Positions 1 through 15,096 of a stretch of DNA of 64,000 nucleotides are shown piece after piece. This DNA comes from Candidatus Entotheonellaceae bacterium. GTDB lineage: Bacteria; Tectomicrobia; Entotheonellia; Entotheonellales; Entotheonellaceae. Every line of letters starts with the position of its first letter. The stretch's first letter is position 1. The position numbers and the translations under genes are program-made. The stretch lies in the NCBI GenBank assembly GCA_965238075.1, contig OZ250173.1, positions 3,288,322 through 3,352,321 of the forward strand, given 5' to 3'. The notes under the pieces were generated by a model. It searched no databases and had not been told where the DNA came from. It saw only the letters and a list, made by a program, of their open reading frames with translations.

Positions 1-205
1 GCTGGTGGCGATGGTCATGATGTTCAATCAGGTTGACGGGCGACTGGACTGCATGCAGACAGAGACAAACCCCCTCTTTGACCGCATGCAGACAGATACC
101 AACGCCCGCTTTGATGCGGTGCTTGAGGCGATTATGAGCTTCGACCGCCGGGTCTCGCGCATCGAACGGCGTTTCGATGCCCATAGCACCGGGGCCGCCG
201 AGTAG
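1..205 (+). CDS. Small membrane-anchored coiled-coil protein, 5' end cut by the window edge; paralog of 9372-9596
   Basis: ORF 5..205 with an internal repeat (DRMQT[E/D]TN-like) and C-terminus EAIMSFDRRVSRIExRxDAHSxGAAE shared with the ORF at 9372. Confidence 0.6.
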   Translation, partial: LVAMVMMFNQVDGRLDCMQTETNPLFDRMQTDTNARFDAVLEAIMSFDRRVSRIERRFDAHSTGAAE

Positions 206-415
206 GCATGCGGTCCCGCTGGCGGATTGGCGACCGCGGCTCGCGGCCGCTTAGAACTCCCCAACTGGCTGCCAAAAGAGGGCTGATGATACGGTTGACG
301 TCCCACCGATTGCGGGCGAAATCGCCCCTTTCGCAACTTCCGGTGGGGCGTTCTGGAGTTCTCCGCGGCAAAATGGCGTAAGTCCAGCATCCACGCGGGT
401 TTCCGGTGATGCTAA
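206..415 (+). repeat. Conserved non-coding leader, copy 1
   Basis: Near-identical by eye to 9597-9806 (CATGCGGTCCCGCTGGCGGATTGGCGACC...CCGGTGATGC); lies directly before the first dif-like site. Confidence 0.9.
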
Positions 416-443
416 AGTTTACACATAGAGACTTATCAGAAGT
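416..443 (-). other. dif-like XerC/D site 1
   Basis: + strand AGTTTACACAT-AGAGAC-TTATCAGAAGT (11-6-11). Confidence 0.75.
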
Positions 444-459
444 TGAAGGGAGAAATCTC

Positions 460-750
460 ATGAGTGTATTCGCGCATCTGGTCACTTCTATGGGGTGGGG
501 TGAACCTGAGGCGACGCAGGCCTTGGCTTATATCCTCCGCCAACAACCCGGCATTCTTCGGGCGTTCGTCAGCTTGCTCGGCGCGGCAGGCGTCACATTC
601 AACCCCGGACGCATTGAGTTTGATGATAATGAGGTGTATTTGCCGGGCAACGACAAATACCTCCCCATCCGCCTCAAACCTGGTGTTGAGCGAGAGAGGG
701 TAGTTGAGGACGCGGTTGAGCAGATCCGCGCTGCTGTGTTCGGAGGTTGA
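460..750 (+). CDS. Cassette ORF, hypothetical protein, possibly internally deleted
   Basis: GGAG RBS then ATG just after site 1; its TGA stop lies inside site 2. Confidence 0.55.
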   Translation: MSVFAHLVTSMGWGEPEATQALAYILRQQPGILRAFVSLLGAAGVTFNPGRIEFDDNEVYLPGNDKYLPIRLKPGVERERVVEDAVEQIRAAVFGG

Positions 751-773
751 CATAAGACGGGATTATCCGAAGT
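745..773 (-). other. dif-like XerC/D site 2
   Basis: GGTTGACATAA-GACGGGA-TTATCCGAAGT (11-7-11). Confidence 0.75.
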
Positions 774-901
774 TGAGCGGGTATGACCTGCGCGGGGAAC
801 CAGCTCCTTTTTTTCCGGTTGACTTGCCGATTGAACATAGAAGATATTGGCCGCCGCTCAGGCACTTCGTCCTTGAATCATCAAACGAAAGGGGGTCCGT
901 T

Positions 902-1077
902 ATGCGCTGGATCGTGGTTTTGACGGTGCTCGCGGCGGGGCCACGATTGCCGAAGCACAGGCATTTCAAGGAATTGTGATGGATGATGGCAATCGAAGCG
1001 TGACGTTCTCCAACTCGATGCTGGAGATCGGCTCCGATACGCTGAACAATCTCAGAGTCTGGCCCAAAATAAGTTGA
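902..1077 (+). pseudogene. Frameshifted remnant of a secreted protein
   Basis: MRWIVVLTVLAAG continues in another frame as ATIAEAQAFQGIVMDD..., giving a signal peptide with an AEA cleavage site; purine-rich RBS upstream. Confidence 0.35.
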
Positions 1078-1299
1078 GCGATTTCGGTAGGTTGTGATTC
1101 GCTGGCATGACCAAGCCGCCACTGGCGAATCCCAAAGGACATCGGGACGACCGTTAATACCGCCCAAACGTGGCTCCTTCATCACCAGCGCAGATCTTCT
1201 CGTCTTTGGATTGGTAGAGCTATGAAAAACAATGCCTTATTTCGGGACGAACTCTTAACAAGGTTATATTTACGGACACTACACTCTAGGGGTTGACCG

Positions 1300-2229
1300 A
1301 TGCGCGAGAGGATGATAACGGATGAGATCCGCATGAGCGACGGCGCACCCATTATCCTGCGGAGGCTCGGGAACCCCAAGGGCTTGCGGCTTGTGGTCAG
1401 TCACGGCAACGGCTTGGCGGTCGACGCCTATGAGTCGTTCTGGAGGCTGCTCTCGGACCGGTTCGATCTGATCCTCTACGACGTCAGGAACCACGGGCGG
1501 AATCCGGTGGGAGATCTCGCCGCGCACAACATGGCCCAACTGATCGACGACACCGTGACTGTCGCGCAGGCCATCGACCGGACGTTTGGCCGACGGCCGC
1601 GGGTCGGTGTCTTCCACTCGTTGGCCGCTCTCCTGTGCCTGTTGCCGGGCGCGGAAGCGCACGGCTATGCGGGCCTGGTGCTGTTCGATCCGCCGGTGGC
1701 GCCGGATGCGGACTCGGCGAGCCGCCTGCTGAAGATGAGGCGGAAGCGGGTCGAGCAGGCGCGGCAGCGGCAGGCGGACTTCGACACGTGGGAGGATCTG
1801 GCGGACGTCTACCGGAGCGCCGCGCCGTTTCGCTTGCTGCCGCCGAGAGCCGTCGAGCGGCTCGCGCAGGCAACGCTCCGGCCGCGCGGGCCGACGGGCT
1901 TCACGCTCTGTTGTCCGCCTGCGTTCGAAGCCAAAATATACGAGGAGAGCATCGCTTGGTCAACGCGCGTTGACTTCGACCGTATCCGGTGTCCCGTAAG
2001 GGTAATCGGCAGCGATCCGGTGCTCCCCTTCTCGTTCCTTCCAAGCGTCGATCTGAACGAGATCGTGAAGCTGGACTACGATTTCCTGCCCGATGCAACG
2101 CACTTCCTGCAACTCGAGAAGCCCGGGGAGTGTGCGCTGTTGGTGCGGGACTTCCTCGACACCCTGGAGAGCGACCGATGCAGGGGCGCAACAGCGGACC
2201 TGGCCGGCGGCGGGCCGGAGACATCGTGA
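1300..2229 (+). CDS. Alpha/beta hydrolase (thioesterase-like)
   Basis: SHGNG, YDVRNHGR, nucleophile elbow VFHSLA, C-terminal ATHFLQLE. Confidence 0.85.
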   Translation: MRERMITDEIRMSDGAPIILRRLGNPKGLRLVVSHGNGLAVDAYESFWRLLSDRFDLILYDVRNHGRNPVGDLAAHNMAQLIDDTVTVAQAIDRTFGRRPRVGVFHSLAALLCLLPGAEAHGYAGLVLFDPPVAPDADSASRLLKMRRKRVEQARQRQADFDTWEDLADVYRSAAPFRLLPPRAVERLAQATLRPRGPTGFTLCCPPAFEAKIYEESIAWSTRVDFDRIRCPVRVIGSDPVLPFSFLPSVDLNEIVKLDYDFLPDATHFLQLEKPGECALLVRDFLDTLESDRCRGATADLAGGGPETS

Positions 2230-2359
2230 ACCGGACTCGCCTTGGGGCCTTCCATCGGGGAACCTTCAGGCAGCAGACCTGCGACCTGCGGCCTGTCGGT
2301 GGTAAGCCGAACCGCCGGTCACCTGCCACGGGGCCGGAAGTGCTGTGAGGTGGATTCGC

Positions 2360-3408
2360 ATGCGGACACCGCCGGAACGTGAACGAGGGGAACCTCAGGT
2401 GTCGTTGGCGTTCTCACAGATGATCATGGGGGCTTGGGTGCCCCAGGTCATCTATACCGCAGTCTCGCTCGGGGTCTTCTAGAACCTCCACGCCGGGCCG
2501 CGTTCCGGCGCCGAGATAGCAAACGAGATTGGTGTTCCGCTCGCGACCACGAATCGGCTGCTGCGCGCCCTCGTTTGCCTCGAATTGTGCAGCGCGTCCG
2601 AGTCCGACACCTTCGCACTCATGCCGGGGGGACGATTACTTTGCGCGGAGACGCCGGGCTCGATGCGCTCGCTGGCGCTGCTCCGGGGCCGAGGGAGCGT
2701 CTGGTCGGCGTGGGGCAGGCTGCTGGACGTTGTTCGCACGGGGAAAACGGCTCCGGAGCTGGTCGCCGGGAAAGGCATCTACGAGTGGCTGGCCGACGAT
2801 CCGGCCGGTTTCAATGTCTTCAACCAGGCGATGACGGAGCTGAGCATCGCCCAGGCGTAGGCGGTCCCGATGCCTTTGACTTTTCGGATGCCCACGTCAT
2901 CGTGGATGTCGGTGGGGGCTACGGTGCGCTCCTCATGGCGATACTCATGAGGTACGGCGACGCCAGCGGCGTCGTCTTCGATCGCTCCACGTGCCGTGAG
3001 GGATCGGAACGGTTGATCGCGCAGACCGGACTGTCGGATCGCTGCAGGTTCGTCGGTGGCGACTTCTTCAAGTCGGTGCCCGTGGGGGGCGACATATACC
3101 TGCTCAAGAACGTGATCCACAATTGGGACGACGATTGGAGCATGACCATCCTGCGAACCTGCCGCACGGCCATGAGCGGAGATTCACGCCTGCTGCTGAT
3201 TGAGCCGATCGTGCCCGAACAGATCACCGCGTCGCTCGCCGACACTGTAGTGGTCGCATTCGATTTGCATATGCTGCTGTTGACCGGCGGTTGCGAACGC
3301 ACCGAAGAGCAGCATCGGTCGCTGTTGCAGGCAGCCGGGTTCGACGTGATGCGCATCGTGCCGACATCGTCGGCGCTCAACCTGATCGAGGCGCGCCAGA
3401 CGGCTTGA
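2360..3408 (+). pseudogene. SAM-dependent O-methyltransferase (dimerisation + Methyltransf_2), disrupted
   Basis: In-frame TAG at 2480, TAG at 2858 plus a frameshift; motifs VDVGGGYG, FVGGDFF, KNVIHNWDD, GCERT. Confidence 0.85.
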
Positions 3409-3439
3409 CTCGGCATTGTCGAACAAGAGCCATTGTGAA

Positions 3440-3592
3440 GGATGTGTTGAAACTTTCAAATGGTGGCAAGAGTGCGATGGGTCGAGTCGACCGGGTTCCA
3501 TCTCATGCAGCCACCTCGAACAGCTTGTTGATGAACTGAATCTGTTGCCGAAGATCCGAACCGCTCACCCACCGCGCTTGCCCCTTCCGGAT
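3440..3592 (-). mobile_element. IS6-family remnant (transposase C-terminus plus terminal IR)
   Basis: Minus-strand IRKGQARWVSGSDLRQQIQFINKLFEVAA*; IR-like GGATGTGTTGAAACTTT at 3440. Confidence 0.65.
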
Positions 3593-3839
3593 CTGGCGGC
3601 GGCCCTGGGCCTGAACGGCCTCGGGGGCTTCGGAGGCTTCGCGGGCGGCGGCGGGGACGCGCCGATGGGCGGCACGGAGTTCCTGTTCGCGTGGGGCGGG
3701 GCTGGCAGTTCTGGGGCCAGGGCGACATCCAGACGTTCGCGGGCGAGCCGGCGGTCGAGCGGCGCTACGAGGGCGGCATGCGCCTCGAAACCGAGCTGAC
3801 GGCCATGCATCCCTACCTGGGCTGGTCGAACGGGGCCAC

Positions 3840-3948
3840 GTCGGTGTGGACGAAGTCGGCGGCGCAGATCCTCGAGAAGGTGGACCGAGCCCGGAAGGCC
3901 CTCGCCGCCGTCTCCCGCATAGGAGGCTGTGTTCGGACACTACACTAG
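3840..3948 (+). mobile_element. IS630-family remnant (transposase C-terminus and right end)
   Basis: VWTKSAAQILEKVDRARKAL...RTLH* ending in ACACTAG. Confidence 0.6.
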
Positions 3949-4013
3949 ATATCATGCTAGGATGGACTCGACATGCGGCGACCGTCAAGTTCGCCGCCAG
4001 GGGGAATGATGAC

Positions 4014-4301
4014 ATGGCAGCCTACGTGATCATGGATATCGAGGTAACCGACCCTACCAGCTACCGTGGTTTTCTGGAGCAGGCGGCGGCAACGGTTGCA
4101 GCGCACGGCGGCAAGTATCTCGTGCGCGCCGGCGCCACGACAGTCCTGCAGGGCAACTGGCAACCTCATCGCCTCGTGGTGGTGGAGTTCGACAGCGCCG
4201 AGCAGGCGAGACAATGGAGAAACTCGCCGGACGCCACTCACGCCAGAGAGATGCTCAACAGGTCGTCCAACACGAACATGATAATTGTCGAGGGCGATTA
4301 A
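4014..4301 (+). CDS. DUF1330 family protein
   Basis: MAAYVIMDIEVTD...HGGKYLVRAG...LVVVEFDS; 95 aa. Confidence 0.9.
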   Translation: MAAYVIMDIEVTDPTSYRGFLEQAAATVAAHGGKYLVRAGATTVLQGNWQPHRLVVVEFDSAEQARQWRNSPDATHAREMLNRSSNTNMIIVEGD

Positions 4302-4456
4302 CGCCGCGCTACGGTGGGCGGACCGGTTGTGGTGCAACTTTGGCCGACGGCGGCTGGTAACCGGAAGAGATCATGAAAAAAGACAATCCGACTGGCGATC
4401 TTCAAGTGGCGACAGACGCGGCCGCGGGTGCTGCCGCTGGTAATCAGGTGAATGCG

Positions 4457-5722
4457 ATGAGCCGCGCTCAGCGCTACGACTGCGCGGTCATCGGCGGCGG
4501 GCCCGCGGGCGCGACGGCGGCGACGGTGTTGGCACAGCACGGCCGGCGCGTGGTGGTCATCGAGCGCGAGCGCTTTCCGCGCCACCACGTCGGCGAATCG
4601 CTGATGCCGTACACTTGGTTTACGTTCGAGCGGCTCGGCGTGCTCGACTGGTTCACGGAAGCCGCCTGTCCTCAGAAATACAGCGTGCAATTCGTCCCGA
4701 CCTCCGGCAAGGTGTCGCAGCCATTCTATTTCTTCGAGACCATCAAGCACCCTTGCGCCACCACCTGGCAGGTGCTTCGCAGCGACTTCGACCGGATGCT
4801 GCTCGACAACGCGCGCGCCAAGGGCGTCGAGGTGCGCCAGGGGGCGGTGGTCCGCGAGGTGCTCATGGAAGGCCAGCGCGCCGTCGGTGTCCGGGCTGAC
4901 CTAACCGGGGGCGGATCCGAGACGTTCTCGGCCGACGCGGTGATCGACGCGTCCGGACGCAACTCGTTCCTGGCCTCCAGGCTCGGCATGAAGCGGCGCG
5001 ACCCCGACCTGAACAAGATCGCCATATTCACCTACTACCGCGGCGCCCGGCGCGACCCAGGGCTCGACGCGGGAGCCACCACCGTCGCCTACATCCCGCA
5101 CAAGGGCTGGTTCTGGTACATCCCGCTGCCGGACGACATCGTCAGCGTCGGCGTCGTGGCCGAGAAGGACTATCTCTACCGCGACACGCGCGACCCCGAG
5201 GACATCTTCGCACGCGAGGCGGCGGCGTGCATCTGGATCGAGGACCACCTGCGGCCGGGAACGCGCGTCGAGCCGGTGCGCGTCACCGGCGAGTTCAGCT
5301 ACCGGGCCGAGGCTATCGGGGGGGACGGCTTCTGTCTGGCGGGCGACGCGTTCTCGTTCCTCGACCCGGTCTTCTCGACCGGCCTGTTCATGGCGCTCAA
5401 GAGCGGGGAGATGGCGGCGGACGCCGTCCACCAGGGTCTCGACAGCGGCGGGGTTACCGCCGCGACGTTCGAGGAGTACGGGCGCCAGATGCGCTGGGCG
5501 CTCGACCAGTTCCGGCAGCTCGTGCTGTCGTTCTACAATGAGCGGTTCAGCTTCCGCGAGTTCATCCGCGCCTACCCGGACATGCACCCGCGGCTGGTCG
5601 ACGCGCTGGTCGGCAACGTTTTCTCCGATCTCGGTCCGCTGATCGACGCGCTCCGCGACTTCTTGGCGCGGGAGCCATCGACCGGCGCCTCGGCGATCGA
5701 CCCGCCGGCTGTCAGCGCCTAG
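4457..5722 (+). CDS. Flavin-dependent halogenase-family FAD oxidoreductase
   Basis: GGGPAG, FPRHHVGES, WFWYIP (WxWxIP), GDAFSFLDPVFSTG; an upstream start at 4373 is also possible. Confidence 0.85.
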   Translation: MSRAQRYDCAVIGGGPAGATAATVLAQHGRRVVVIERERFPRHHVGESLMPYTWFTFERLGVLDWFTEAACPQKYSVQFVPTSGKVSQPFYFFETIKHPCATTWQVLRSDFDRMLLDNARAKGVEVRQGAVVREVLMEGQRAVGVRADLTGGGSETFSADAVIDASGRNSFLASRLGMKRRDPDLNKIAIFTYYRGARRDPGLDAGATTVAYIPHKGWFWYIPLPDDIVSVGVVAEKDYLYRDTRDPEDIFAREAAACIWIEDHLRPGTRVEPVRVTGEFSYRAEAIGGDGFCLAGDAFSFLDPVFSTGLFMALKSGEMAADAVHQGLDSGGVTAATFEEYGRQMRWALDQFRQLVLSFYNERFSFREFIRAYPDMHPRLVDALVGNVFSDLGPLIDALRDFLAREPSTGASAIDPPAVSA

Positions 5723-6064
5723 CAGCCCGTGGAAGAAACGGGTCTCCAGAGCGTCAGGTGGCGGAAGGGGGCCAGCACCCAGGCGGCGGTGAGTTTGTGC
5801 CGACGGCGGGTTTTGCAGCTTGAAGACCCGGCGATCGGGCTGAAAAGGCCAATATGACGGCGAAAGTGGCGAAGAATGTGCAGAAAACGGTGCTGACATG
5901 ACCCGCGAGCGCCGCTTGCGCCGCGGCGAGCCCCTGCAGAGCCCGCGGGGTGCCAAAACGTGCGTGCGGCGGCAGCCCGGCCAACCGCTGGCCGCGGTCG
6001 GCAGCCCGCCGGAAATCGTCCGACGCCTACGCGCCGCGAACGACGGCTCCGGGACGGACGCTCC

Positions 6065-7384
6065 ATGACCCGGGACGCCGGGGCGGTTCCAGCAACCGAG
6101 CGGCTGCCGCGCGAGACGCTGGCCGCGCTTCAAGGCGAGCGCCTGACACGGCTGCTCGGCTATATCCACGCACGGAACCGGTTCTACACCCGCAAACTGA
6201 CGGATGCGGGCATCGATCCCGCGCAGCTTGTCCTGCCGCGTGATCTCGCCGCGCTGCCCTTCACCACCAAGGCGGAGCTGGTGGCCGATCAGGCCCAGGC
6301 GCCGCCGTGGGGCACCGTGCTTACCGAGCCGCTCGTGCGCTACACCCGTTACAACCAGACCTCGTCCACGACCGGCCGACCGCTGCGCTGGCTCGACACG
6401 ACGGAGAGCTGGCAATGGATGCTCGACTGCTGGCAGGCGGTCTACCGCGGCGCCGGCGTCGGCGCCGACGACCGCATCATCTTCCCGTTCTCGTTCGGAC
6501 CGTTCCTCGGATTCTGGACGGCGTTCGACGCGGCCACCCAGCTCGGGGCGCACGCCATTCCGGCCGGCGGGATGACGAGCCACCAGCGACTCGCCCTGAT
6601 TAGGTCGCTGGCGCCCACCGTGGTCTGCTGCACGCCGACCTACGCGCTGCGGCTGCTCGACGTGGCGCGCGAGGCGGATGGCGTCGACAACGCGCTGGCC
6701 GATACTGCCGTCCGCACCGTCATCGTCGCCGGCGAGCCGGGCGGCAGCATTCCGGCCACGCGCCAGCGGATCGAGCGCGGCTGGGGGGCGCGGGTCATCG
6801 ACCACCACGGGTTGACCGAGGTCGGCCCCATCAGTTTCGAGTGCCGGGAGGCCCCGGGGTTCCTGCACGTCAACGAACGCGAGTACATCGCCGAGATGCT
6901 CGACCCGGAGTCGGGACAGCCGGCGGCGGACGACAGCCGCGGCGAGCTGGTCATCACGAACCTCGGGCGCACCGCCAGCCCGTTGATCCGCTACCGTACG
7001 GGCGATCTGGTCGTCGCGACGCACGAGCCGTGCGCCTGCGGGCGTACGTTCGTGCGCCTCGTGGGCGGCATTGTGGCGCGCGCCGACGACATGGTCAACA
7101 TCCGCGGGACGAACGTCTATCCGACTGCCGTCGAAGAGGTTCTGAGCGCAATCGACGCAGTAGTCGAGTACCGCTGCACGGTGCGGACGGCAGCCTCGAT
7201 GCGCGCGCTCGCCGTGGAGGTCGAGGTGGGCCGCGGCGCCGATGAGGCCGCGGTGACGGCGCTGGTGTCGCAAAACCTGCGGAAAGCGCTCGGCCTGAAC
7301 GTCCAGGTCACGCCGGTCGCCGCCGGCACGCTGCCGCGCTTCGAGATGAAGGCGCGCCGATTTGTCGTGGAACGCAGTTCATAA
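6065..7384 (+). CDS. Phenylacetate-CoA ligase (PaaK)-family adenylating enzyme
   Basis: LPFTTKAEL, TSSTTGRP, DHHGLTE, PLIRYRTGD, RADDM, RFEMKARR. Confidence 0.9.
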   Translation: MTRDAGAVPATERLPRETLAALQGERLTRLLGYIHARNRFYTRKLTDAGIDPAQLVLPRDLAALPFTTKAELVADQAQAPPWGTVLTEPLVRYTRYNQTSSTTGRPLRWLDTTESWQWMLDCWQAVYRGAGVGADDRIIFPFSFGPFLGFWTAFDAATQLGAHAIPAGGMTSHQRLALIRSLAPTVVCCTPTYALRLLDVAREADGVDNALADTAVRTVIVAGEPGGSIPATRQRIERGWGARVIDHHGLTEVGPISFECREAPGFLHVNEREYIAEMLDPESGQPAADDSRGELVITNLGRTASPLIRYRTGDLVVATHEPCACGRTFVRLVGGIVARADDMVNIRGTNVYPTAVEEVLSAIDAVVEYRCTVRTAASMRALAVEVEVGRGADEAAVTALVSQNLRKALGLNVQVTPVAAGTLPRFEMKARRFVVERSS

Positions 7385-7399
7385 TCTGAAGCGTCGTAA

Positions 7400-7612
7400 C
7401 ATGCTGGGGCTCCGCGCGCCGGACAGGCAAACCCCGCCAGAACCTCGTAGCGGTCCTGGGCGTAGGCATGACGAAAACCGTGTGTGCCGTTCAGCCCGAT
7501 GCTCTTGCGGGGACTCTGCCACAGGCCGTCACGGTAGTCTTTGTACGACAGCGACGACGGGATCAGCGAGCCCTTGCCCGCCACCGCCTTGGCATGGTCC
7601 AGGGCCTTGCGC
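7400..7612 (-). pseudogene. Tyrosine recombinase/integrase fragment
   Basis: GSLIP...THGFRHAYAQDRYEVLAGFACP carries the HxxR catalytic box; cut off upstream at the ISKra4 element. Confidence 0.7.
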
Positions 7613-7637
7613 GGGAGCACCAAAAAGTGTGGGACAG

Positions 7638-9027
7638 TCAGGCAGCGCGTGGTTCAGCTTCAGCTGACCTGTCCCCGGCCTTCATTCCCGGGTACCACTG
7701 CTCGAACTTCTCCCTGAGCGTGCCGTCGAGGGTCCGCGTCCGGACTTGCAGCATGAGATGCGCCCCGCCTTTCGACCACCGCATCTGCTGACGCTTGCCA
7801 AACCGTTTGCCGACAACCGTGTTGATGGCACTCTCCACAAACCGTGGAAACGCGCTCGCCGTAGCGCCGCCGTTCGGCATAGTTGGGAATCAAGCCCGCG
7901 TTGCTGCGGATGTAGGTATCGAACTCGCCGGCAGCTTTCCTGAGTGCCTTCATGCCCGGGTAGTCGGTCTTGATGCCTTCCAGATCCAAGACGAGTTCCG
8001 TGATCGCACGACGGCCGTCGTGCAGATTCCCATTCCACAGGCCGCCTTTGATGCGGCGCAGAAGCCGATCCACGGCTTCCGCTTCATCCGAATTTGAGTG
8101 GCTCAGCCCTCTGACATACTGGCGCATGACGGTGATGCGCATGGTGATGTAGAACCAGTCGAGCAGGTGCTCGGACGCCGGGGCCATGTAACGCGCCATG
8201 TTCCTGACCGTGTCGCCGCCATCGGTCAGGTGACAGGCTGGTTTTCCTGCCATCCCTGCTCCTTCAGGACCTCGTGCAGCCGCCGCCGTGGCCGGGTGTC
8301 GTGGGACTGCACGAGACCGAGGTAACGGTTTGGCTTGTCCACGGGCATGGACTTGGCGACCATGACCTCGAAGTGCGTGTTCCTTGTCCCGCGAGCGCAC
8401 ATAGCCGCCATCGATTCCGACCGTGATGGAGTCTTCCGGCAGCGGCATGGCGGCCCGCTCCTGCGGGCACGTTTCGATGAAGAAGAACTGTTCATCTGCC
8501 AGTTCGCCTTCCATGCGTTTGGCCGCCATGTGAAGATGGTTACGCACGGTCTCGGCGCTCAGGCCCTCGCCGATGGGCAGGACATCCTTGAGAAGATGGG
8601 TCGCGGCGCCGAACGAGACCAGCGAGGCCCACCTGGTTTCCAGCCACAGCAGTTCCGGTGCCGTGTGGTCCGGAGGCAAGTCGTTCAGAGGGCTGAAGGT
8701 GTTTGGGCGACGGCCGTCGCAGGCACATTGGCAATACCGCGGGCTTGTGACTGAGATATCACCGAAGACCATGCGGTAACGGATGGCGCGGCTGCCCTTT
8801 TTGCGCAGCCGCAGACCGCAGCCAGGACAGACCGACTTCGAGGCGCAGTATGCCTCCGCCTGGGCCGTAACGATCTCGTGTTGCAGGGACTTCAGCAGTG
8901 CTTTGCCTTCGGCGATTGACAGGCCGGTCTCTTCGTGCCGATCATGTCCCTTGTCGAGAATGATGACCTCGCGCTCCCGTATCTCACCGTCCGGGGTTGT
9001 CACGCGTAGGGTGATCTCGAATTTCAT
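7638..9027 (-). mobile_element. ISKra4-family transposase, frameshifted
   Basis: GLSIAEGK, CPGCG, VGIDGGYVR, LTDGGDTV, HLLDWF, FVESAINTVVGKRFGKRQQMRW spread over three frames. Confidence 0.85.
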
Positions 9028-9240
9028 GGCTGTCCTCCCCAGGCAAGGGGTTTTCCAGAATCCGGGGAGAGGAAAATCCGCGTTTCACTGGATGGCGTTT
9101 TCTGCCATGCCATGGCGTCGGATTGCCCTCTTCGGTCCTCATCTTTGTTTTCGGCCTTTGAGTAGTAATGGAACAGAAAACTGTGTTAAGCCTTGCTGAG
9201 TTGACGGCCGGCGTCTTTCGGTGAGCCAGTGTCGTTGGCG

Positions 9241-9372
9241 TCATTGAGCTCGGGGAATGAGATGGCGAGAGCGCATGAAATGATAGAGCGTTGAGCGATC
9301 TACCCCGGTGATCTTGGCAATCAACGCCTTTGAGACCTTGAGGTCCAGGAGCCTTTGAATTTCGTCTTCCTT
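9241..9372 (-). pseudogene. C-terminal HTH of a serine resolvase/invertase (not in the ORF track)
   Basis: Translated by hand: KEDEIQRLLDLKVSKALIAKITGVDRSTLYHFMRSRHLIPRAQ*. Confidence 0.65.
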
Positions 9373-9596
9373 TGGTGGGTTTGTTCGTGGCGATGGTTAC
9401 CCTGTTCAACGGTGTCGACGCGCGCGTCGACGCCTTGAACGACCGCATGGACCGCATGCAGGCTGAAACCAACCTGGGCTTTGAAGCCGTCAATGCACGC
9501 TTCGACAAGGCTTTTGAGGCGATCATGAGTTTTGACCGCCGGGTCTCCCGCATTGAAGGGCGTCTCGATGCCCATAGCGCCGGGGCCGCCGAGTAG
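9372..9596 (+). CDS. Small membrane-anchored coiled-coil protein, probably 5' truncated
   Basis: Hydrophobic VGLFVAMVTLF followed by heptad-like DRMDRMQAETN...; paralog of 1-205. Confidence 0.6.
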   Translation: MVGLFVAMVTLFNGVDARVDALNDRMDRMQAETNLGFEAVNARFDKAFEAIMSFDRRVSRIEGRLDAHSAGAAE

Positions 9597-9806
9597 TCAT
9601 GCGGTCCCGCTGGCGGATTGGCGACCGCGGCTCGCGGCCGTTTAGAACTCCCCAACTGGCTGCCAAAAGAGGGCTGATGATACGGTTGACGTCCCACCGA
9701 TTGCGGGCGAAATCGCCCCTTTCGCAACTCCCGGTGGGGCGTTCTGGAAGTCTCCGCGGTAAAATGGCGTAAGGCGAGCATCCACGGGGGTTCCCGGTGA
9801 TGCGAA
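9597..9806 (+). repeat. Conserved non-coding leader, copy 2
   Basis: Direct repeat of 206-415. Confidence 0.9.
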
Positions 9807-9835
9807 AGTTTACATATAATCGTCTTATCGGAAGT
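9807..9835 (-). other. dif-like XerC/D site 3
   Basis: AGTTTACATAT-AATCGTC-TTATCGGAAGT; reverse complement ACTTCCGATAA-N7-ATATGTAAACT. Confidence 0.8.
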
Positions 9836-9896
9836 TGGATATTCCTAGGTGCCGTAGTGGATATAGACCTTATATCTGGAACTAAGTGAGGTATTG

Positions 9897-10714
9897 ATGA
9901 CTGATTTTGCGACTGATGGGTTTTTGAGCGATGAGATATTACGATACGAGAGTCAGCACATCGATACTCTGACGAACTGGACCTGGCTAAAAGCGTCAAT
10001 CGAGTTGCCCATACTGCAATCCGGTCGATACGGATCGATCGGACTCAATCAAGCGTGCTTCTTCTGGCATCTCTGCTGGTGCGTCAAGTAGAGACGTTCC
10101 AAGCCTTCTTAATCCTCATCGGAAAGGGTCTCATTCCTCAGTCTGCAATACTTCTGCGAAACATGGCAGAGTCGATGTTCATTGTGGGGGCTATCGGTAA
10201 AGATCAGACCTTTGCAGAAAGCTACATCCAGTCTGAGGATTTACCTCGCCTGAAGGTCCTCAGAAAATTAAGGGAAACCAGTCTGCGTAGGGGCAATGCA
10301 CCAGATCCGGAACTGGATACCTCAATTGGAGAGCTTGAGAAAAAAACTGGGAAGGGAAAAATCTGGCAGACGATAGAAATAGCCAAAGTTGCTGAGTTGA
10401 CCGACTATTACGACACCCTGTATCGGTTTATGAGCATGACGGTACACACGTCGCCACGAAGCCTAAACGAAATACTTGTCGTAGGTTCAAATGGTGACGT
10501 CGAAGCATTGAACTACGCACCCAAGGTGGAGAATCTTGAGGTCCACCTTGCATGTGCAATAGACATGATGTCTTACACGCTACACGAAATAGCAACCCAT
10601 TTCTCGCTTGACCCTGCGCGAATAGGGCTTGAAGAAGTGCACCAAAGACTTCGAACCCTCGACATCCCTTTTGCCATGGAGAAACACGGGCATAAACCTC
10701 ACCGCCAAGGGTGA
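9897..10714 (+). pseudogene. Cassette gene, DUF5677-like protein, frameshifted near the 5' end
   Basis: ORFs 9894 and 10055 join; AILLRNMAES and YDTLYRFMSMTVH; TGA stop inside site 4. Confidence 0.65.
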
Positions 10715-10736
10715 CATATAAGGGCTTATCGGAAGT
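10709..10736 (-). other. dif-like XerC/D site 4
   Basis: GGGTGACATAT-AAGGGC-TTATCGGAAGT. Confidence 0.75.
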
Positions 10737-10754
10737 TGGGGGAGGAGTATCTGA

Positions 10755-11451
10755 ATGAGTGATGGCAACTTGAATCCAGAAACGACCCTGCAACAGGCTT
10801 TGGATCGATCCCTGGTCATACAGGAACAGATCAACACGCTTTTGAATGACCCTGGGCTTTTCATTCCCTCTCTGCCAACGAACAAGCAAACGCAGATCGC
10901 CTGTGGCTTGTTCGGCCTCACGATCGACCAAGCTTGGAGTGTTACCCTTGAACCTTGGAGTGTTACTCCAGAACGAACGATATGGTGCAGCTTTGGCGCT
11001 GACACGCCCTGTTCTCGAAGCCTGCTGCAGGGGGAAATGGATCAGATACCATGCAAAAAAGAGAACCATTGAGACCTTCTCATCCAACAATTTTCCCGAC
11101 ACGCCCTCTCTCATCAAGAAGACAATGAGCCGTGTTGCTGGCCTTAACGGGGGAGCGGATGACTTTGTCTTAAATGTCTACCGATGGCTAAGCGACTACA
11201 CGCATGGCGGGGTTCGCATGCTCAGGATGCAACTGTCCGAGACCGGCGTCGCCTCAGAGTACAACTTGGAAGAAGTGAGAAAAGCTCTGATGGTATCAGA
11301 CGTGATGCAGATACAAGCAGCTAGCGAATTGCTCGACTTCGCCCGGTGCAAAAACGACAACGACTGCCAATCATTGAGAGGAACACACAACCAGTGCAAG
11401 CGGTTTCAAGCTGATATGGAAAAAATACGCCATCTTCTGAAGTTGCTATAG
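10755..11451 (+). pseudogene. Cassette gene, DUF6988/DUF5677-like protein, frameshifted near 10930-10970
   Basis: GGAGG RBS; YGAALALTRPVLEACCRGKW and LSDYTHGG; local duplication CTTGGAGTGTTAC at 10933 and 10954 near the frame change; TAG overlaps site 5. Confidence 0.6.
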
Positions 11452-11477
11452 ACGACATAAAACGGCTTATCAGAAGT
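11450..11477 (-). other. dif-like XerC/D site 5
   Basis: AGACGACATAA-AACGGC-TTATCAGAAGT. Confidence 0.75.
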
Positions 11478-11530
11478 TAGGGGGATAACCCTCAGAACGC
11501 GAAGAATGTGACCAAAATAAGGAGAAGCCG

Positions 11531-12868
11531 ATGAGTGCAGCAGCAGAAAGCAACACAAGGAACGTTCTGGAAAAAATAAGTGAGGTAGTAAAACAATCAG
11601 CCGATGGCGACTACATCTTTCGTGGCGAACCTAAACACTATCCCAAAGTGTCATCGAGCCTTTACCGCCAGTACCCTGAGGTTGAGACGGAACATTTCGA
11701 TATAGAGGTTGTCCAAAGAGAACTTTTGCAGGAGGCGAAAAGACATGCAGATGAACCCGACGACTTTGAAATCCTGACCCAACTCCAACATTATGGCGGC
11801 GACACAAACCTTATTGACTTTACGGCTGACTTTCTCATAGCTCTGTTCTTTGCCTGTGACAGGCACTTCGACATGGATGGCAGAGTGATCCTGCAGCGAA
11901 GGGAACCGATCGAAGATCAACTGAAGGAACCTCGTCACCCAAGAAATCGCGTCATCTCTCAGAGAAGCATATTCATTCAACCGCCAAAGGGCTTCATTGA
12001 GCCAGACCATGTTGTCTTAATCCCAAAAGACCTTAAACAGCCCATTTTAAACCACTTGCGAAAGTACCATGGCTTATCCAATGCAACCATCTACAACGAT
12101 CTTCATGGGTTTATCACCAATCAACGCAACCATAAGAGTGCTTATAGGGAGTTTTACAGAGGTCTTACCTGCCAGGAGAAAGGCAATCATGACAAAGCGA
12201 CACATCATTACACCAAGGCCATTGAACTGAATCCGAACCTTGCTGCCGCCTACAACAACCGCGGTATTGCCTACGGGAAAAGAGGCGAGCTTGACCGAGC
12301 CATCGAAGATTGCACCAAGGCCATTCAACTGAATCCGAACCTTGCTGAGGCTTACAGCAACCGCGGTACTGCCTACCAGAATAAGGGCGAACTTGGCCGA
12401 GCCATCGAAGACTACACCAAGGCCACTGAACTGAATCCGAACCTTGCTGAGGCTTACAACAGCCGCGGCGCTGCCTACCAGAATAAAGGCGACCTTGGCC
12501 AAGCCATCGAAGACTACACCAAGGCCATTGAACTGAATCCAAATCATGCTGAGGCTTACAACAACCGCGGCGTTGCCTACGGGAATAGAGGCGAGTTTGG
12601 CCCGGCCATCGAAGACTACAACAGGGCCATCGAACTGAATCCAAATTATGCTGAGGCTTATTACAACAGCGGCATTACTTTGTTATCGCGGGAAGAATGG
12701 GACAGGGCCAAATCAAAGTTATGTACTGCCGAGAACGAGGGAATAGATATCATCGCTGCGTTTCAGAGTGAGTACAAAAGTGTTACAGATTTCGAGAGTC
12801 AACATGGCGTGGATGTGCCCAAAGACATCACAGCAATGCTAACGCCAAGAGAGGGCGCGTCAGGTTGA
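11531..12868 (+). CDS. Cassette gene, FRG-domain plus tetratricopeptide-repeat protein
   Basis: YIFRGE, LQHYGGDTNLIDFT, IALFFAC, RVISQRSIF, then 34-aa TPR repeats; TGA inside site 6. Confidence 0.9.
   Translation: MSAAAESNTRNVLEKISEVVKQSADGDYIFRGEPKHYPKVSSSLYRQYPEVETEHFDIEVVQRELLQEAKRHADEPDDFEILTQLQHYGGDTNLIDFTADFLIALFFACDRHFDMDGRVILQRREPIEDQLKEPRHPRNRVISQRSIFIQPPKGFIEPDHVVLIPKDLKQPILNHLRKYHGLSNATIYNDLHGFITNQRNHKSAYREFYRGLTCQEKGNHDKATHHYTKAIELNPNLAAAYNNRGIAYGKRGELDRAIEDCTKAIQLNPNLAEAYSNRGTAYQNKGELGRAIEDYTKATELNPNLAEAYNSRGAAYQNKGDLGQAIEDYTKAIELNPNHAEAYNNRGVAYGNRGEFGPAIEDYNRAIELNPNYAEAYYNSGITLLSREEWDRAKSKLCTAENEGIDIIAAFQSEYKSVTDFESQHGVDVPKDITAMLTPREGASG
12209..12670 (+). repeat. 102-bp tandem coding repeat (TPR)
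   Basis: Units start at 12209, 12311, 12413, 12515 and 12617 (consensus TACACCAAGGCCATTGAACTGAATCC). Confidence 0.9.
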
Positions 12869-12891
12869 CATAACGCGGGGTTATCAGAAGA
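12863..12891 (-). other. dif-like XerC/D site 6
   Basis: GGTTGACATAA-CGCGGGG-TTATCAGAAGA. Confidence 0.75.
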
Positions 12892-13071
12892 TGGGACGAG
12901 GTAGCTGCTGCTGGGATAACGGCTGATGAGATAAACACCGTACCTGTAAAGCTCCGCGAGCTTCTTCGTACACCACACCGTTACTGCTATACCCACCGCC
13001 TGTCTCCGCTATCCATCCCTCCCGTCTGAAAAATGCAGGCACCTACGCGCAAAGACTGATTGGCGTCTTCC

Positions 13072-14394
13072 TCAGTTGAACACGTAGCGCGGCAGCCACG
13101 TCGACAGCTCCGGGAAGAAGGCGACGAGCATCAGCCCGATGATCTGGATAATCACAAACGGAATGATGCCGCGATAAATCTGGCCGGTGGTGACTTGCCC
13201 CGGCGCCACGCCCCGGAAGTAGAACAGCGCGAACCCGAAGGGCGGCGTGAGGAAGGACGTCTGCAGGTTGATGCCCAGTAGGACGCCGTACCACAGCGGG
13301 TCGAAGCCCATGGCGCTCAGGATGGGCGCGATGACCGGCAGGTGGATGAAGGCGATTTCGATGTAATCCAGGAAGAACCCCAGCAGAAACACCACCCCCA
13401 TGATGCAGGCGAAAATGGCCCAGTTGGGCAGGTCGAGCTGATTGACCATGTCGTGGATCAGGATGTCGCCGCCCAAGCCGCGGAATGTCAGGCCGAAGGC
13501 GGTGGCGCCCACCAGTATGATGAACACCATGCTGGTCAGGCGCGTGGTCGTTTCCATGACCTCCTTCAGCATTTTGAAGTTGAACCTGCCGCCGAGAATG
13601 CTGAGCAGAAGAGCTCCTGAGGCACCCATGGCCGCCGCCTCGGTGGGTGCCGCGATGCCGAAAAAAATGGAGCCGAGAACGGCGACCATCAGGAACAGCG
13701 GCGGGACAAGTACCTTGCCGATGCGCCTCAGGAGTTCGCGGGAAGAAATCGCCGTGCGCTCTTCACGGGGAATCGGCGGTGCGACCTGTGGGCGGAAGAA
13801 TGAAACGCCAAGAAGATACAGGATATACAGAGCCGCCAGGCTGACGCCGGGAATGAGAGCGCCGAGGAAGAGATCGCCAACCGGCACGCCCAGGATGTCG
13901 CCCACCAGGACGAGGACGATGCTCGGCGGGATGATCTGGCCCAGGGTGCCGGAGGCGCAAATAACGCCTGACGCGAGCCCTTTGTCGTAGTTGCGCCGCA
14001 GCATGGTGGGCAGCGCGATCAGGCCCATGGTGGTGACGGTAGCGCCGACGATGCCGGTGGACGCTGCCAGAAGCGTGCCCACGATGACTACCGAAATGGC
14101 CAGCCCGCCCGGCAGCCGCCCCAGAACCAGGCCCATGGTTTCCAGCAAGTCTTCCGCCAACCTGGAACGCTCCAGCGTCGCACCCATGAAGACGAAAAGC
14201 GTGACCGCAATGAGGGTGAAATTGGTCATGATGCCCCAGATGCGCAGGGGCAGCAGGTTGAAGAAGTCCAGCCCGAAGCCGTACAGCCCGAAGGCCAACG
14301 CCGTGCCGCCGATGGTGAAGGCGATCGGGTAACCCGCCAGAATCAAAACGCTGAACACCACGAACATCAGCGCCGGAAGCAGGTCGGTTATCAC
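13072..14394 (-). CDS. dctM: TRAP transporter large permease
   Basis: SGTLGQIIPPS, QTSFLTPPFG; polytopic membrane protein. Confidence 0.95.
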   Translation of the reverse strand: MITDLLPALMFVVFSVLILAGYPIAFTIGGTALAFGLYGFGLDFFNLLPLRIWGIMTNFTLIAVTLFVFMGATLERSRLAEDLLETMGLVLGRLPGGLAISVVIVGTLLAASTGIVGATVTTMGLIALPTMLRRNYDKGLASGVICASGTLGQIIPPSIVLVLVGDILGVPVGDLFLGALIPGVSLAALYILYLLGVSFFRPQVAPPIPREERTAISSRELLRRIGKVLVPPLFLMVAVLGSIFFGIAAPTEAAAMGASGALLLSILGGRFNFKMLKEVMETTTRLTSMVFIILVGATAFGLTFRGLGGDILIHDMVNQLDLPNWAIFACIMGVVFLLGFFLDYIEIAFIHLPVIAPILSAMGFDPLWYGVLLGINLQTSFLTPPFGFALFYFRGVAPGQVTTGQIYRGIIPFVIIQIIGLMLVAFFPELSTWLPRYVFN

Positions 14395-14906
14395 GCCATC
14401 TCCTTTCCCAGCACCACGAACAGGTTCTTGAGCGTCGCCGAAACTCCCTGTAAAGCCACCAGCGCGAAGGCGACCGGAATGACGGTTTTCAGGATGTAGC
14501 GCGCCGGAATGCCGCCGGGGTCAGGTGAGCCCTCCATGACCGACCAGGAATTGACCACAAAAGGGATTGACGTCCAGATCAGCAAGAAACAGGTGGGAAA
14601 GAGGAACAGAATGCCGAAGACGAGCTCGACCCAGGCTTTCGCGTGCGGCGACAGGTTGGCGTGCACGATATCGACCCGTACATGGTCGCCCTTGAGGTGC
14701 GTGTACCCGGCGGCGATCAGGAACAGGACGGCGAACAGGTGCCACTCCAGTTCCTGGATGAAGACGTAGGTGATGTCGAACAGGTAGCGCATGACCACGT
14801 CATAGGTGGTCACCAGGACCATGATGAGGGTGAGCCAGGCAACGTTTTGGCCTACCTTTTCGTTCAGGCGGTCGATTCCGCGCACTACGGCGGAAAGAAA
14901 ATTCAT
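14391..14906 (-). CDS. dctQ: TRAP transporter small permease
   Basis: ELEWHLF, HVRVDI, EGSPDPGG; overlaps dctM. Confidence 0.92.
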   Translation of the reverse strand: MNFLSAVVRGIDRLNEKVGQNVAWLTLIMVLVTTYDVVMRYLFDITYVFIQELEWHLFAVLFLIAAGYTHLKGDHVRVDIVHANLSPHAKAWVELVFGILFLFPTCFLLIWTSIPFVVNSWSVMEGSPDPGGIPARYILKTVIPVAFALVALQGVSATLKNLFVVLGKEMA

Positions 14907-15096
14907 GCCGTCTCCCCTTCCCTATCGGGTTCACGGTCCGTTCAGGTGGCAGACTTGCGGGTCCCGGAATGCCCTGCATTATACGCGAAAGCGGCGCCGG
15001 GGGCGCATTGACTGCCCCATGGGGCTGCGCTACCCTGCCCGCCTGCCGCCCACCCCTCGCTACGGGCGGCGCCTGGGTCCTCAAGGAGCTCCTCCC

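Follow-up and report, generated by a model that had tools for sequence, protein, structure and literature searches.

Leader-headed cassette arrays at dif-like sites in a Candidatus Entotheonellaceae genome: a likely integron-like capture system run by host XerC and XerD

Features of the locus

The sequence analyzed here (the window) is a stretch of 64,000 nucleotides from a Candidatus Entotheonellaceae bacterium (assembly GCA_965238075.1, contig OZ250173.1, positions 3,288,322 to 3,352,321), and represents the final 64 kb of a single 3.35-Mb contig. Near its beginning, the window contains two arrays of gene-sized cassettes that are separated by short, directly repeated sites resembling dif, the chromosomal site of the XerC and XerD recombinases (XerCD), and that appear to belong to a gene-capture system. 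Array 1 consists of a single cassette and array 2 of three cassettes; each array is preceded by a non-coding leader and by an open reading frame (ORF) of a small coiled-coil protein family.

The genome that contains the window is denoted G000 and its congeners G001 to G005; R1 is a sequence-only leader model that was built from 11 G000 copies. The features of the two arrays are the following:

2..205, + strand: small coiled-coil ORF, family member A, 3' part; precedes leader A, its start lies upstream of the window
206..415, + strand: leader A, non-coding platform sequence with the boxes CCCCAAC, CCCACCG and CGGTGGGG; R1 match at 253-446, 133 bits
416..443, + strand: site 1, first of array 1; arms AGTTTACACAT (left) and TTATCAGAAGT (right), spacer of 6 nt
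460..750, + strand: cassette 1 gene, 96 aa, no known family; it ends with TGA at 748-750, inside the left arm of site 2
745..773, + strand: site 2; arms GGTTGACATAA (left) and TTATCCGAAGT (right), spacer of 7 nt
9372..9596, + strand: small coiled-coil ORF, family member B; precedes leader B
9597..9806, + strand: leader B; R1 match at 9645-9839, 130.5 bits; identity with G005 of about 95% as far as the first site
9807..9835, + strand: site 3, first of array 2; arms AGTTTACATAT (left) and TTATCGGAAGT (right), spacer of 7 nt; the similarity to G005 is lost in this site
9897..10714, + strand: cassette 2 gene, DUF5677; frameshifted in the assembly, an intact 273-aa ORF with the 4 extra letters of the public runs
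10709..10736, + strand: site 4; arms GGGTGACATAT (left) and TTATCGGAAGT (right), spacer of 6 nt
10755..11451, + strand: cassette 3 gene, DUF6988; the assembly has a 13-nt tandem duplication, without which the ORF is intact (227 aa)
11450..11477, + strand: site 5; arms AGACGACATAA (left) and TTATCAGAAGT (right), spacer of 6 nt
11531..12868, + strand: cassette 4 gene, FRG domain and TPR repeats, 445 aa; the stop lies in the left arm of site 6
12863..12891, + strand: site 6, terminal; arms GGTTGACATAA (left) and TTATCAGAAGA (right), spacer of 7 nt; the similarity to the congeners returns at this site

The dif-like sites and the chromosomal dif

Each site consists of a left arm, a spacer of 6 or 7 nt and a right arm, 28-29 bp in total. 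The right-arm core, TTATCNGAAG, has six matches in the window, on the + strand each time, compared to a mean of 0.12 and a maximum of 1 in 100 shuffles. The six co-oriented sites described in an earlier note, made from the sequence alone, stand at exactly the positions listed above. The whole genome contains 24 exact cores: 18 are accompanied by a left arm of the dif type and are found either in arrays, behind leaders or at dif, and the other six are bare chance cores. The first sites possess a near-perfect left arm that is fused to the leader and is nearly that of the true dif. In the cassette sites, the right arm, TTATCNGAAGT, is conserved and the left arm is degenerate (nnnnnACATAA, with only ACATAA kept). 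The spacers vary among partner sites (e.g., AATCGTC, AAGGGC, AACGGC and CGCGGGG), and certain combinations of left arm and spacer recur as classes, e.g., ...ACATAA-CCGCCC and GGTTGACATAA-nnCGGGG. In 49 leader regions from four genomes, with 0 to 5 sites per region, 77 sites are co-oriented and 3 are opposite.

In integrons, the attC sites at the cassette ends are imperfect inverted repeats of about 60-140 nt that fold into hairpins. An inverted-repeat scan of both window arrays detects no recurrent inverted-repeat pair at the cassette boundaries, i.e., nothing that would qualify as an attC hairpin, which bears out the remark in the earlier note that none was visible.

The true chromosomal dif was sought with the two-arm pattern ACATA-N6-8-TTATCNGAAG in 17 genomes of the class, namely, six of the genus, eight from other genera of the family and three of other families. 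One 22-letter match is identical and single-copy in all six genomes of the genus and is located about 20 kb from xerD in each of them. In G000, this site maps to 3139036-3139063, 149 kb before the window, and at 3.139 Mb the cumulative GC skew completes its steep rise, on the other side of the chromosome from its minimum near 1.53 Mb. Being single-copy, conserved and located at the terminus, this site is the chromosomal dif; with it and the xerC and xerD genes (see below), the host components that the earlier note had proposed to locate are in place. The six window sites match it in both arms and, being multi-copy and variable, are not themselves chromosomal dif.

Within the genus, the pattern has 13 matches in G000, 7 to 23 in four congeners and a single one in G004. 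In the other genera of the family, seven of the eight genomes have 0 to 2 matches and one (G009) has 5; there are no matches in the three genomes of other families, and the reversed pattern, used as a control, has none in any of the 17 genomes. With a related pattern, many genomes of Bacillota and Acidobacteriota give one site each, as a dif consensus should. The five matches in G009 lie on five contigs, and this genome may hold a related system that lacks the present leader.

A conserved leader heads the arrays

The first site of each window array is preceded by a repeat of about 300 nt (100-399 and 9491-9790, 91% identical), the non-coding 210 nt of which, leaders A and B, are about 97% identical, with the coding part more diverged. 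Thus, the arrays are not free-standing; the earlier note, correct on the sites, missed their context, that is, the leader, the 12 platforms described next and the true dif 149 kb away. Alignment of the DNA upstream of all "first-type" sites in G000 reveals a leader architecture of about 190 nt, in which the box CCCCAC(C/T) is followed after about 42 nt by CCCCACC and, after about 41 nt more, by the inverted box GGTGGGG; the 3' portion contains CCAG and GGTTTCAG-like stretches and runs into GAAAGTTTACATA, the left arm of the site.

An R1 search identifies 12 full leader copies in G000 (the 11 used for the model and a new one) and a few fragments. These units of leader and first site, hereafter platforms, are scattered over the chromosome. 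On the true dif, the R1 match is confined to the site itself. All five congeners are matched, four of them with 12-20 matches each and G004 with only two partial ones, and no R1 leader is detected in the 35 non-congener genomes that were searched (eight from other genera of the family and 27 more distant). The boxes are conserved in 46 copies from four genomes at different loci, which speaks for selection on the leader itself.

Of 68 leaders, 18 have a small coiled-coil ORF on their strand no more than 1 kb upstream, and 27 of the 59 hits to this family are so placed; further members are encoded at 3067252 and 2476507 in G000. No curated family is assigned to this ORF (Imm75 scores 22 bits, with a cut-off of 25, and DUF7310 is below its cut-off as well); it matches two PHROGs of unknown function. 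A truncated leader with a site is present at 373686-373776 of G000 amid two serine recombinase genes and a broken integrase, and this region (near 361450-377453) is probably a decayed mobile element.

Several candidate roles of the leader were explored and rejected. A search of window positions 1-14000 against Rfam gives no matches at E<=1, and no tRNA or tmRNA was found in the window. The single-sequence fold has z = -1.64; RNAalifold yields a helix between boxes 1 and 3 on 11 copies and no pairs on 46, and hand-drawn stems with a box2-box3 hairpin pair 61.1% of the cells compared to 61.0% in shuffled alignments, with 237 of 500 shuffles at least as good. In single-copy folds, this hairpin is strong only in leaders A and B. 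A simple scan of leader B finds no sigma-70-type promoter, and in the region of leader B and array 2 as a whole the number of promoter-like sites is two (mean of the shuffles, 3.2) and that of terminator-like sites is also two (mean of the shuffles, 4.0). The occurrence of GGTGGGG is not skewed between replichores to any real extent (358 on the leading and 300 on the lagging strand) and, therefore, the boxes are not a KOPS-like guide that orients FtsK. Given that the invariant boxes are spaced by about four helical turns, protein-binding DNA would fit better than RNA. A metagenome scan with the leader-end pattern retrieved 16 contigs, none of which has a leader according to R1, and weak R1 matches in Candidatus Versatilivorator proved to cover the site only, in an alignment that lacks the leader boxes.

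Cassettes and their genes

Each adjacent pair of sites within the window arrays encloses one gene on the + strand, with the start codon 16-61 nt past the site and, in all four cases, with the stop codon in the left arm of the next site or overlapping its first bases. The single genes that had been noted at 9897-10714 and 10755-11451 are located as described; each is frameshifted in the assembly and intact according to contigs of three public runs from two studies, in which 4 additional letters follow 9955 and 13 letters are missing at 10951. The corresponding 13-letter tandem duplication is also absent from the homologs in G001 and G005. These differences are either assembly errors or strain variants. 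The TPR repeats of the cassette 4 gene are encoded by four tandem 102-nt units (12156-12665) that are 76-80% identical. As noticed before, the cassettes are lower in GC than their surroundings: the values are 0.455-0.537 in array 2 and 0.55-0.72 in the flanks (1400-9800 and 12800-16000), with 0.623 for the genome.

The cassette contents were surveyed using the longest + strand ORF of at least 60 aa, which covers 35 of the 36 cassettes holding a + strand ORF of at least 40 aa. The matches include four proteins with Sel1 repeats, two MmeI-type enzymes, two DUF5677 proteins and one each of DUF2971, FRG-TPR, Ada/Ogt, globin, DUF3187, DDE transposase and group II intron reverse transcriptase. At three of the 12 G000 platforms, the array opens with a DUF2971-like cassette gene.

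Two unusual cassettes come from G000. One (L001; 445789-450054, minus strand) is a 4.2-kb "cassette" with a frameshifted group II intron reverse transcriptase/maturase; in the other (L005; 2076749-2078858, minus strand), the DUF2971-like first cassette is broken by an insertion sequence (IS) with a DDE transposase. A G001 cassette contains a 90% identical copy of a 1.17-kb stretch of the L005 cassette; this stretch is probably the IS.

Relatives of the window cassette genes occur in the congeners: those of the DUF6988 gene, in G001 and G005, show 77% identity, and that of the FRG-TPR gene, in G002, shows 68%. For cassette 1, a 126-nt match to the 3' end in G001 terminates at a site.

Replacement of cassettes at orthologous platforms

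The flanks of array 2 (locus B) are conserved in all five congeners, with 86-93% identity. In the comparison with G005, where the flanks are 92-97% identical, the homology spans leader B and the left arm of site 3, ends in the site 3 spacer and restarts at the left arm of site 6; the intervening 3 kb are unrelated, and G005 has its own sites there. The complete replacement of the array between genomes with flanks that are so similar implies a recent turnover at this locus. G001, G002 and G003 carry other arrays, from 0.9 to about 10 kb, between the same flanks, and in G004 the flanks are present without sites. The right arm of the terminal site and the flank that follows are common to the window, G005, G002 and G003, with a small deletion at this point in G001.

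Eight other G000 platforms, recognized by conserved upstream flanks, have orthologs in G001, G002 or G005. At four of these (2078845, 555159, 450041 and 2476058), the similarity is lost no more than about 10 nt from the first site, and any renewed similarity begins at, or at most 1.8 kb after, the last recognized site; at three others (2655916, 148003 and 2954549), the entire region is collinear with G005. Altogether, breakpoints fall inside the 28-29-bp sites at five independent platforms. The comparison of relatives proposed in the earlier note therefore favors its suggestion that site-bounded units are exchanged: the platform positions are orthologous and the cassette content differs between species, being wholly different in four congeners at locus B, with the breaks in the sites.

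Additional evidence comes from an MmeI-like restriction-modification cassette (3.5-3.8 kb) that is present at two G001 platforms, where its place in the array is not the same; over 2.9 kb the two copies share 78% identity, and their homology begins at the preceding site. Contigs of public runs diverge from the window at 9818 and 9838, within or just after the first site, and continue into other sequence.

Other potential signs of cassette movement were discarded. A near-identical cassette pair in G002 (L015 and L052) is a segmental duplication that includes the leader rather than a clean cassette move. Contig joints that connect a right arm with a later left arm were collected with sides of up to 30 letters and a minimum likeness of 90; such joints often come from other organisms or repeats. 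The joints 9836>12868 (public run X3, depth 21, side 30), 11478>12868 (X1, depth 3, side 24), 9820>11454 and 9838>11453 (both X7, depth about 4) are not in register and were not used as evidence, and neither was the lower contig depth over the array than over the flanks (X3 and X7).

Recombinases

A six-frame search of the single-contig genome with PF00589 identifies two intact tyrosine recombinases, XerD (370 bits, with the NCBIfam cut-off of 329.6) and XerC (337.4 bits, cut-off 335.15), encoded in G000 at 3118633-3119592 and 818724-819704, respectively. The remaining matches are one broken integrase (376888-377453) and one weak fragment, none of them in the window. The integron integrase IntI is not detected in the genome by this search, so the earlier statement that no intI is visible in the window extends to the genome as a whole, where XerC and XerD are the only intact tyrosine recombinases. 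Four serine recombinases are encoded elsewhere in G000; recombinases of this class are not known to use dif-type sites.

The congeners each encode XerC and XerD together with differing extra recombinases, none of which is common to all leader-bearing genomes. Among the extras are short, strongly scoring tyrosine recombinases of 199 aa in G001 and G003. G004 possesses XerC, XerD and dif, yet has almost no leaders or arrays.

Proposed mechanism and alternative explanations

Taken together, these observations make it likely that the window arrays belong to an integron-like capture system that lacks an integrase, is run by XerCD and has at least 12 platforms on the chromosome, these two among them. 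Of the earlier proposal of a gene-capture array operated by XerCD or a related tyrosine recombinase, the site-bounded exchange is now backed by the genome comparisons and the lack of IntI by the recombinase search, with XerCD as the presumed enzyme. Under this scheme, a platform would be a non-coding leader of about 200 nt, sometimes behind the small coiled-coil ORF, that ends in a full dif-like site, and a cassette would be a gene-sized unit with one dif-like site. Host XerC and XerD would insert circular cassettes at the leader-proximal site and excise cassettes between directly repeated sites. Upon such insertion, the leader would retain its own left arm and each cassette would leave a degenerate left arm at its 3' end, similar to attI and attC in integrons, and the scheme thus predicts the observed pattern of a full left arm in the first site and degenerate ones in the cassette sites. 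Because the spacers differ between partner sites, exchange of one strand pair, completed by replication, is the probable reaction, a route that has been described for the CTX phage and for integrons (PMC3442271, PMC3458562). The leader might supply a promoter, a landing pad for accessory proteins, or both, and the short gaps between the sites and the start codons suggest read-through expression from the leader.

A more ambitious version of this hypothesis would regard the system as a second, independent solution of the integron type, in which attI-like platforms distributed over the chromosome rely on the housekeeping XerC and XerD, without a dedicated integrase, for the uptake, storage and reshuffling of cassettes with single genes, among them one-polypeptide restriction-modification enzymes and further genes of the defense type, and in which the leader provides expression and/or an accessory factor that frees recombination from the cell-division trigger. 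We advance this version tentatively, as a proposition that comes close to an even call.

Several observations weigh against the capture scheme. The left arm AGTTTACATAA is presumed to be the XerD side, and TTATCNGAAGT the XerC side, only by analogy with the Bacillus-type dif. The leader has no promoter consensus, RNA covariation or Rfam match. Four of the 12 G000 platforms (3066946, 148003, 555159 and 2954549) have no recognizable downstream site, and at platform 1928656 the next sites are only found about 9.5 kb downstream. The claim of exactly one gene per site pair holds for the four window cassettes and fails as a general rule: cassettes elsewhere contain IS elements or a group II intron, and one co-oriented gene per cassette is not universal because other arrays include several cassettes with a minus-strand ORF as the longest. 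No dif-like site lies within about 5 kb of the DUF6988 and FRG-TPR relatives in the congeners, so that for two cassette genes there are homologs elsewhere without flanking sites, a pattern that the earlier note had listed as evidence against gene capture; we read these site-less homologs of cassettes 3 and 4 as resident, non-cassette relatives. The left arm and spacer of the terminal site are alike in 17 of 18 positions between the window and G005 despite the different adjoining cassettes, and G002 and G005 share a homologous last cassette with different left arms. Neither finding is expected if, as in the simple form of the scheme, a left arm always moves together with its cassette; the recurrent classes of left arm and spacer may be the explanation. 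The public-run contigs demonstrate no excision product, circle or empty site. Finally, a study of Acinetobacter plasmids reports that directly repeated Xer sites are not excised by XerCD in vivo, and resemblance to dif is therefore no guarantee of excision (PMC11705084).

Some of these points would be readily explained if the arrays were fossil or passive, that is, if minimal Xer-exploiting elements, similar to the integrative mobile elements that exploit Xer (IMEXs), had decayed at ectopic dif-like sites, with no present exchange and with the leader being a mere conserved repeat, e.g., the 3' region of the coiled-coil gene. Such decay is compatible with the collinearity of three orthologous platforms between G000 and its closest relative, G005, with the several platforms that lack a downstream site, with the IS and group II intron insertions inside cassettes, with the lack of a demonstrated excision junction and with the small ORF family ahead of 18 of the 68 leaders. 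It is difficult to reconcile, however, with the full replacement of the locus B array between genomes with flanks that are 92-97% identical, the divergence of public-run contigs at the first site, the maintenance of the leader boxes in 46 copies from different loci and the intactness of the cassette genes in the public runs, so we consider it unlikely, although it is the strongest of the alternatives.

The other two explanations concern the enzyme and the mode of exchange. A dedicated recombinase other than XerCD might recognize the dif-like sites, acting in trans from a mobile element or being an unrecognized protein; the 199-aa tyrosine recombinases of G001 and G003 are potential candidates, and the near absence of leaders and arrays from G004, with its complete set of XerC, XerD and dif, points in the same direction, in that XerCD alone does not create the system. 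Nevertheless, G000 maintains 12 platforms with no third intact tyrosine recombinase, the extra recombinases are not common to G000, G002 and G005, and the four serine recombinases belong to a class that is not known to act on dif-type sites; this explanation appears improbable, more so than decay. Ordinary homologous recombination or gene transfer could, in principle, replace an array through the leader and the downstream flank, which are long conserved homology arms, and the dif-like repeats, which overlap stop codons and precede ribosome-binding sites, would then be transcription or translation signals. In that case, breakpoints should be scattered through the arms, whereas at five platforms they fall in the 28-29-bp sites; furthermore, the repeats share both arms with the true dif, their orientation is biased 77:3, and recombination of this kind only moves existing arrays and leaves their build-up from site-bounded units unexplained. 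This possibility is very remote.

Region between the two arrays

The block between the arrays (919-9371) encodes an alpha/beta hydrolase, an O-methyltransferase, a DUF1330 protein, a tryptophan-halogenase-like flavoenzyme and an AMP-ligase-like enzyme, and includes an IS of the ISKra4 family; as a whole, it is present in G000 and G005 only. Part of it (1300-7384) looks like a small biosynthetic gene block that is sandwiched between two platforms. G005 lacks 82-918, i.e., leader A, cassette 1 and site 2, with a 5-bp overlap at the junction. At the same locus, G001 has a single ORF-leader unit that is 74-75% identical to A and B alike, and because of this single unit, the sequence comparison indicates that the platform is duplicated in the lineage of G000 and G005. 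One might speculate that a circle carrying the block and a leader integrated at site 2.

The ISKra4-family IS occupies 7613-9153 (ORF 7660-9027, minus strand), and its transposase scores 208.8 bits with a cut-off of 205. The ends of this IS are multi-copy in G001 and G003, and two of the G003 copies adjoin tyrosine-recombinase genes (C220 and C252). A repeat of about 200 bp at 1051-1256, with many copies in G001 and G003 (71-92% identity), resembles a miniature inverted-repeat transposable element.

Comparison with known systems

Integrons, the textbook gene-capture platform, are defined by their own integrase. The arrays described here resemble them, especially the sedentary chromosomal integrons, in having a fixed platform with a distinct first site and a co-oriented row of mostly promoter-less single-gene cassettes, the content of which varies between close relatives and includes many unknown or defense-type genes with atypical GC. 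Thus, the co-oriented array of variable content behind a fixed platform is found here, and intI and attC are not: the sites are double-stranded, dif-type and 28-29 bp long instead of folded attC. In addition, the leader-rich genomes have many small platforms (12-20 leader matches in four congeners) as opposed to one large array.

Another useful comparison is with the plasmid resolution sites cer and psi, in which a Xer core is flanked on one side by about 180-200 bp of conserved non-coding accessory DNA. This accessory sequence is present on every partner site, at the XerC side, and enforces deletion only. The conserved flank of about 200 nt that could bind accessory proteins is a shared trait; here, in contrast, the leader is attached to the first site only and to what is presumed to be the XerD side.

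The IMEXs, of which the gonococcal island is an example, also depend on the recombinases of the host. Those such as the CTX and TLC phages (PMC9226527, 10.64898/2026.06.12.731946) share with the present arrays the lack of a recombinase of their own, a dif-mimicking attachment site with one degenerate arm and the formation of tandem arrays through repeated insertion, probably by a single strand-pair exchange. They differ in that IMEXs are multi-gene elements integrated at the chromosomal dif, whereas here single genes occupy leader-linked ectopic sites at least 149 kb from dif.

The pdif and dif modules of Acinetobacter are similar in that extra dif-like sites away from the main dif delimit gene-sized modules in rows, with no dedicated recombinase. 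A chromosomal dif module island described for Acinetobacter comprises 22 chromosomal sites, ten of them clustered, with modules that share alternating C/D and D/C sites (PMC12907356). In these accounts, the modules are alternating, shared and mainly plasmid-borne, and no leader is described, unlike the present co-oriented (77:3), chromosomal and leader-headed arrays at at least 12 conserved positions. The mechanism of module mobility is disputed: Blanchais et al. report that the Acinetobacter cassettes tested are not excisable and that the sites form cointegrates instead (PMC11705084). We found no description of leader-headed, co-oriented arrays of dif-site cassettes in the literature, with supplements outside the search. 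The designation of the system as undescribed, made in the earlier note, accordingly applies to this leader-headed co-oriented form and has to be qualified because chromosomal dif islands with multiple modules have been published for Acinetobacter (PMC12907356).

Arrays of dif-like sites were also observed in more distant organisms. A contig of Ectobacillus panaciterrae (L103, 777-3149) contains six co-oriented dif-like sites in 3.2 kb, partly paired 80-87 nt apart, which bound single genes in either orientation (L,D-transpeptidase-like, acetyltransferase-like and membrane-protein ORFs, as labeled by eye); by appearance, this is a comparable array of cassettes, here in a strain of the Bacillota that is in culture. 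The acidobacterial metagenome-assembled genome of Candidatus Versatilivorator has three co-oriented sites (L059; 2369, 3199 and 5061). The R1 leader is absent from the arrays of both organisms. Several Planococcus records (L073, L081-L083, L101, L114 and others) each contain several dif-like sites in mixed orientation.

Should the proposed scheme be correct, leader-headed arrays of single genes between direct repeats can be built on the dimer-resolution system of the host at many chromosomal positions. The full first site, the cassette sites with a degenerate arm and the three-box leader would then constitute a natural set of substrates with which to study how XerCD is diverted to gene excision and insertion away from the terminus. 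The cassettes themselves are a pool of uncharacterized and defense-type genes in a lineage of sponge symbionts known for natural products. The arrays in a Bacillota isolate and in a genome from the Acidobacteriota suggest that the principle might be both widespread and overlooked.

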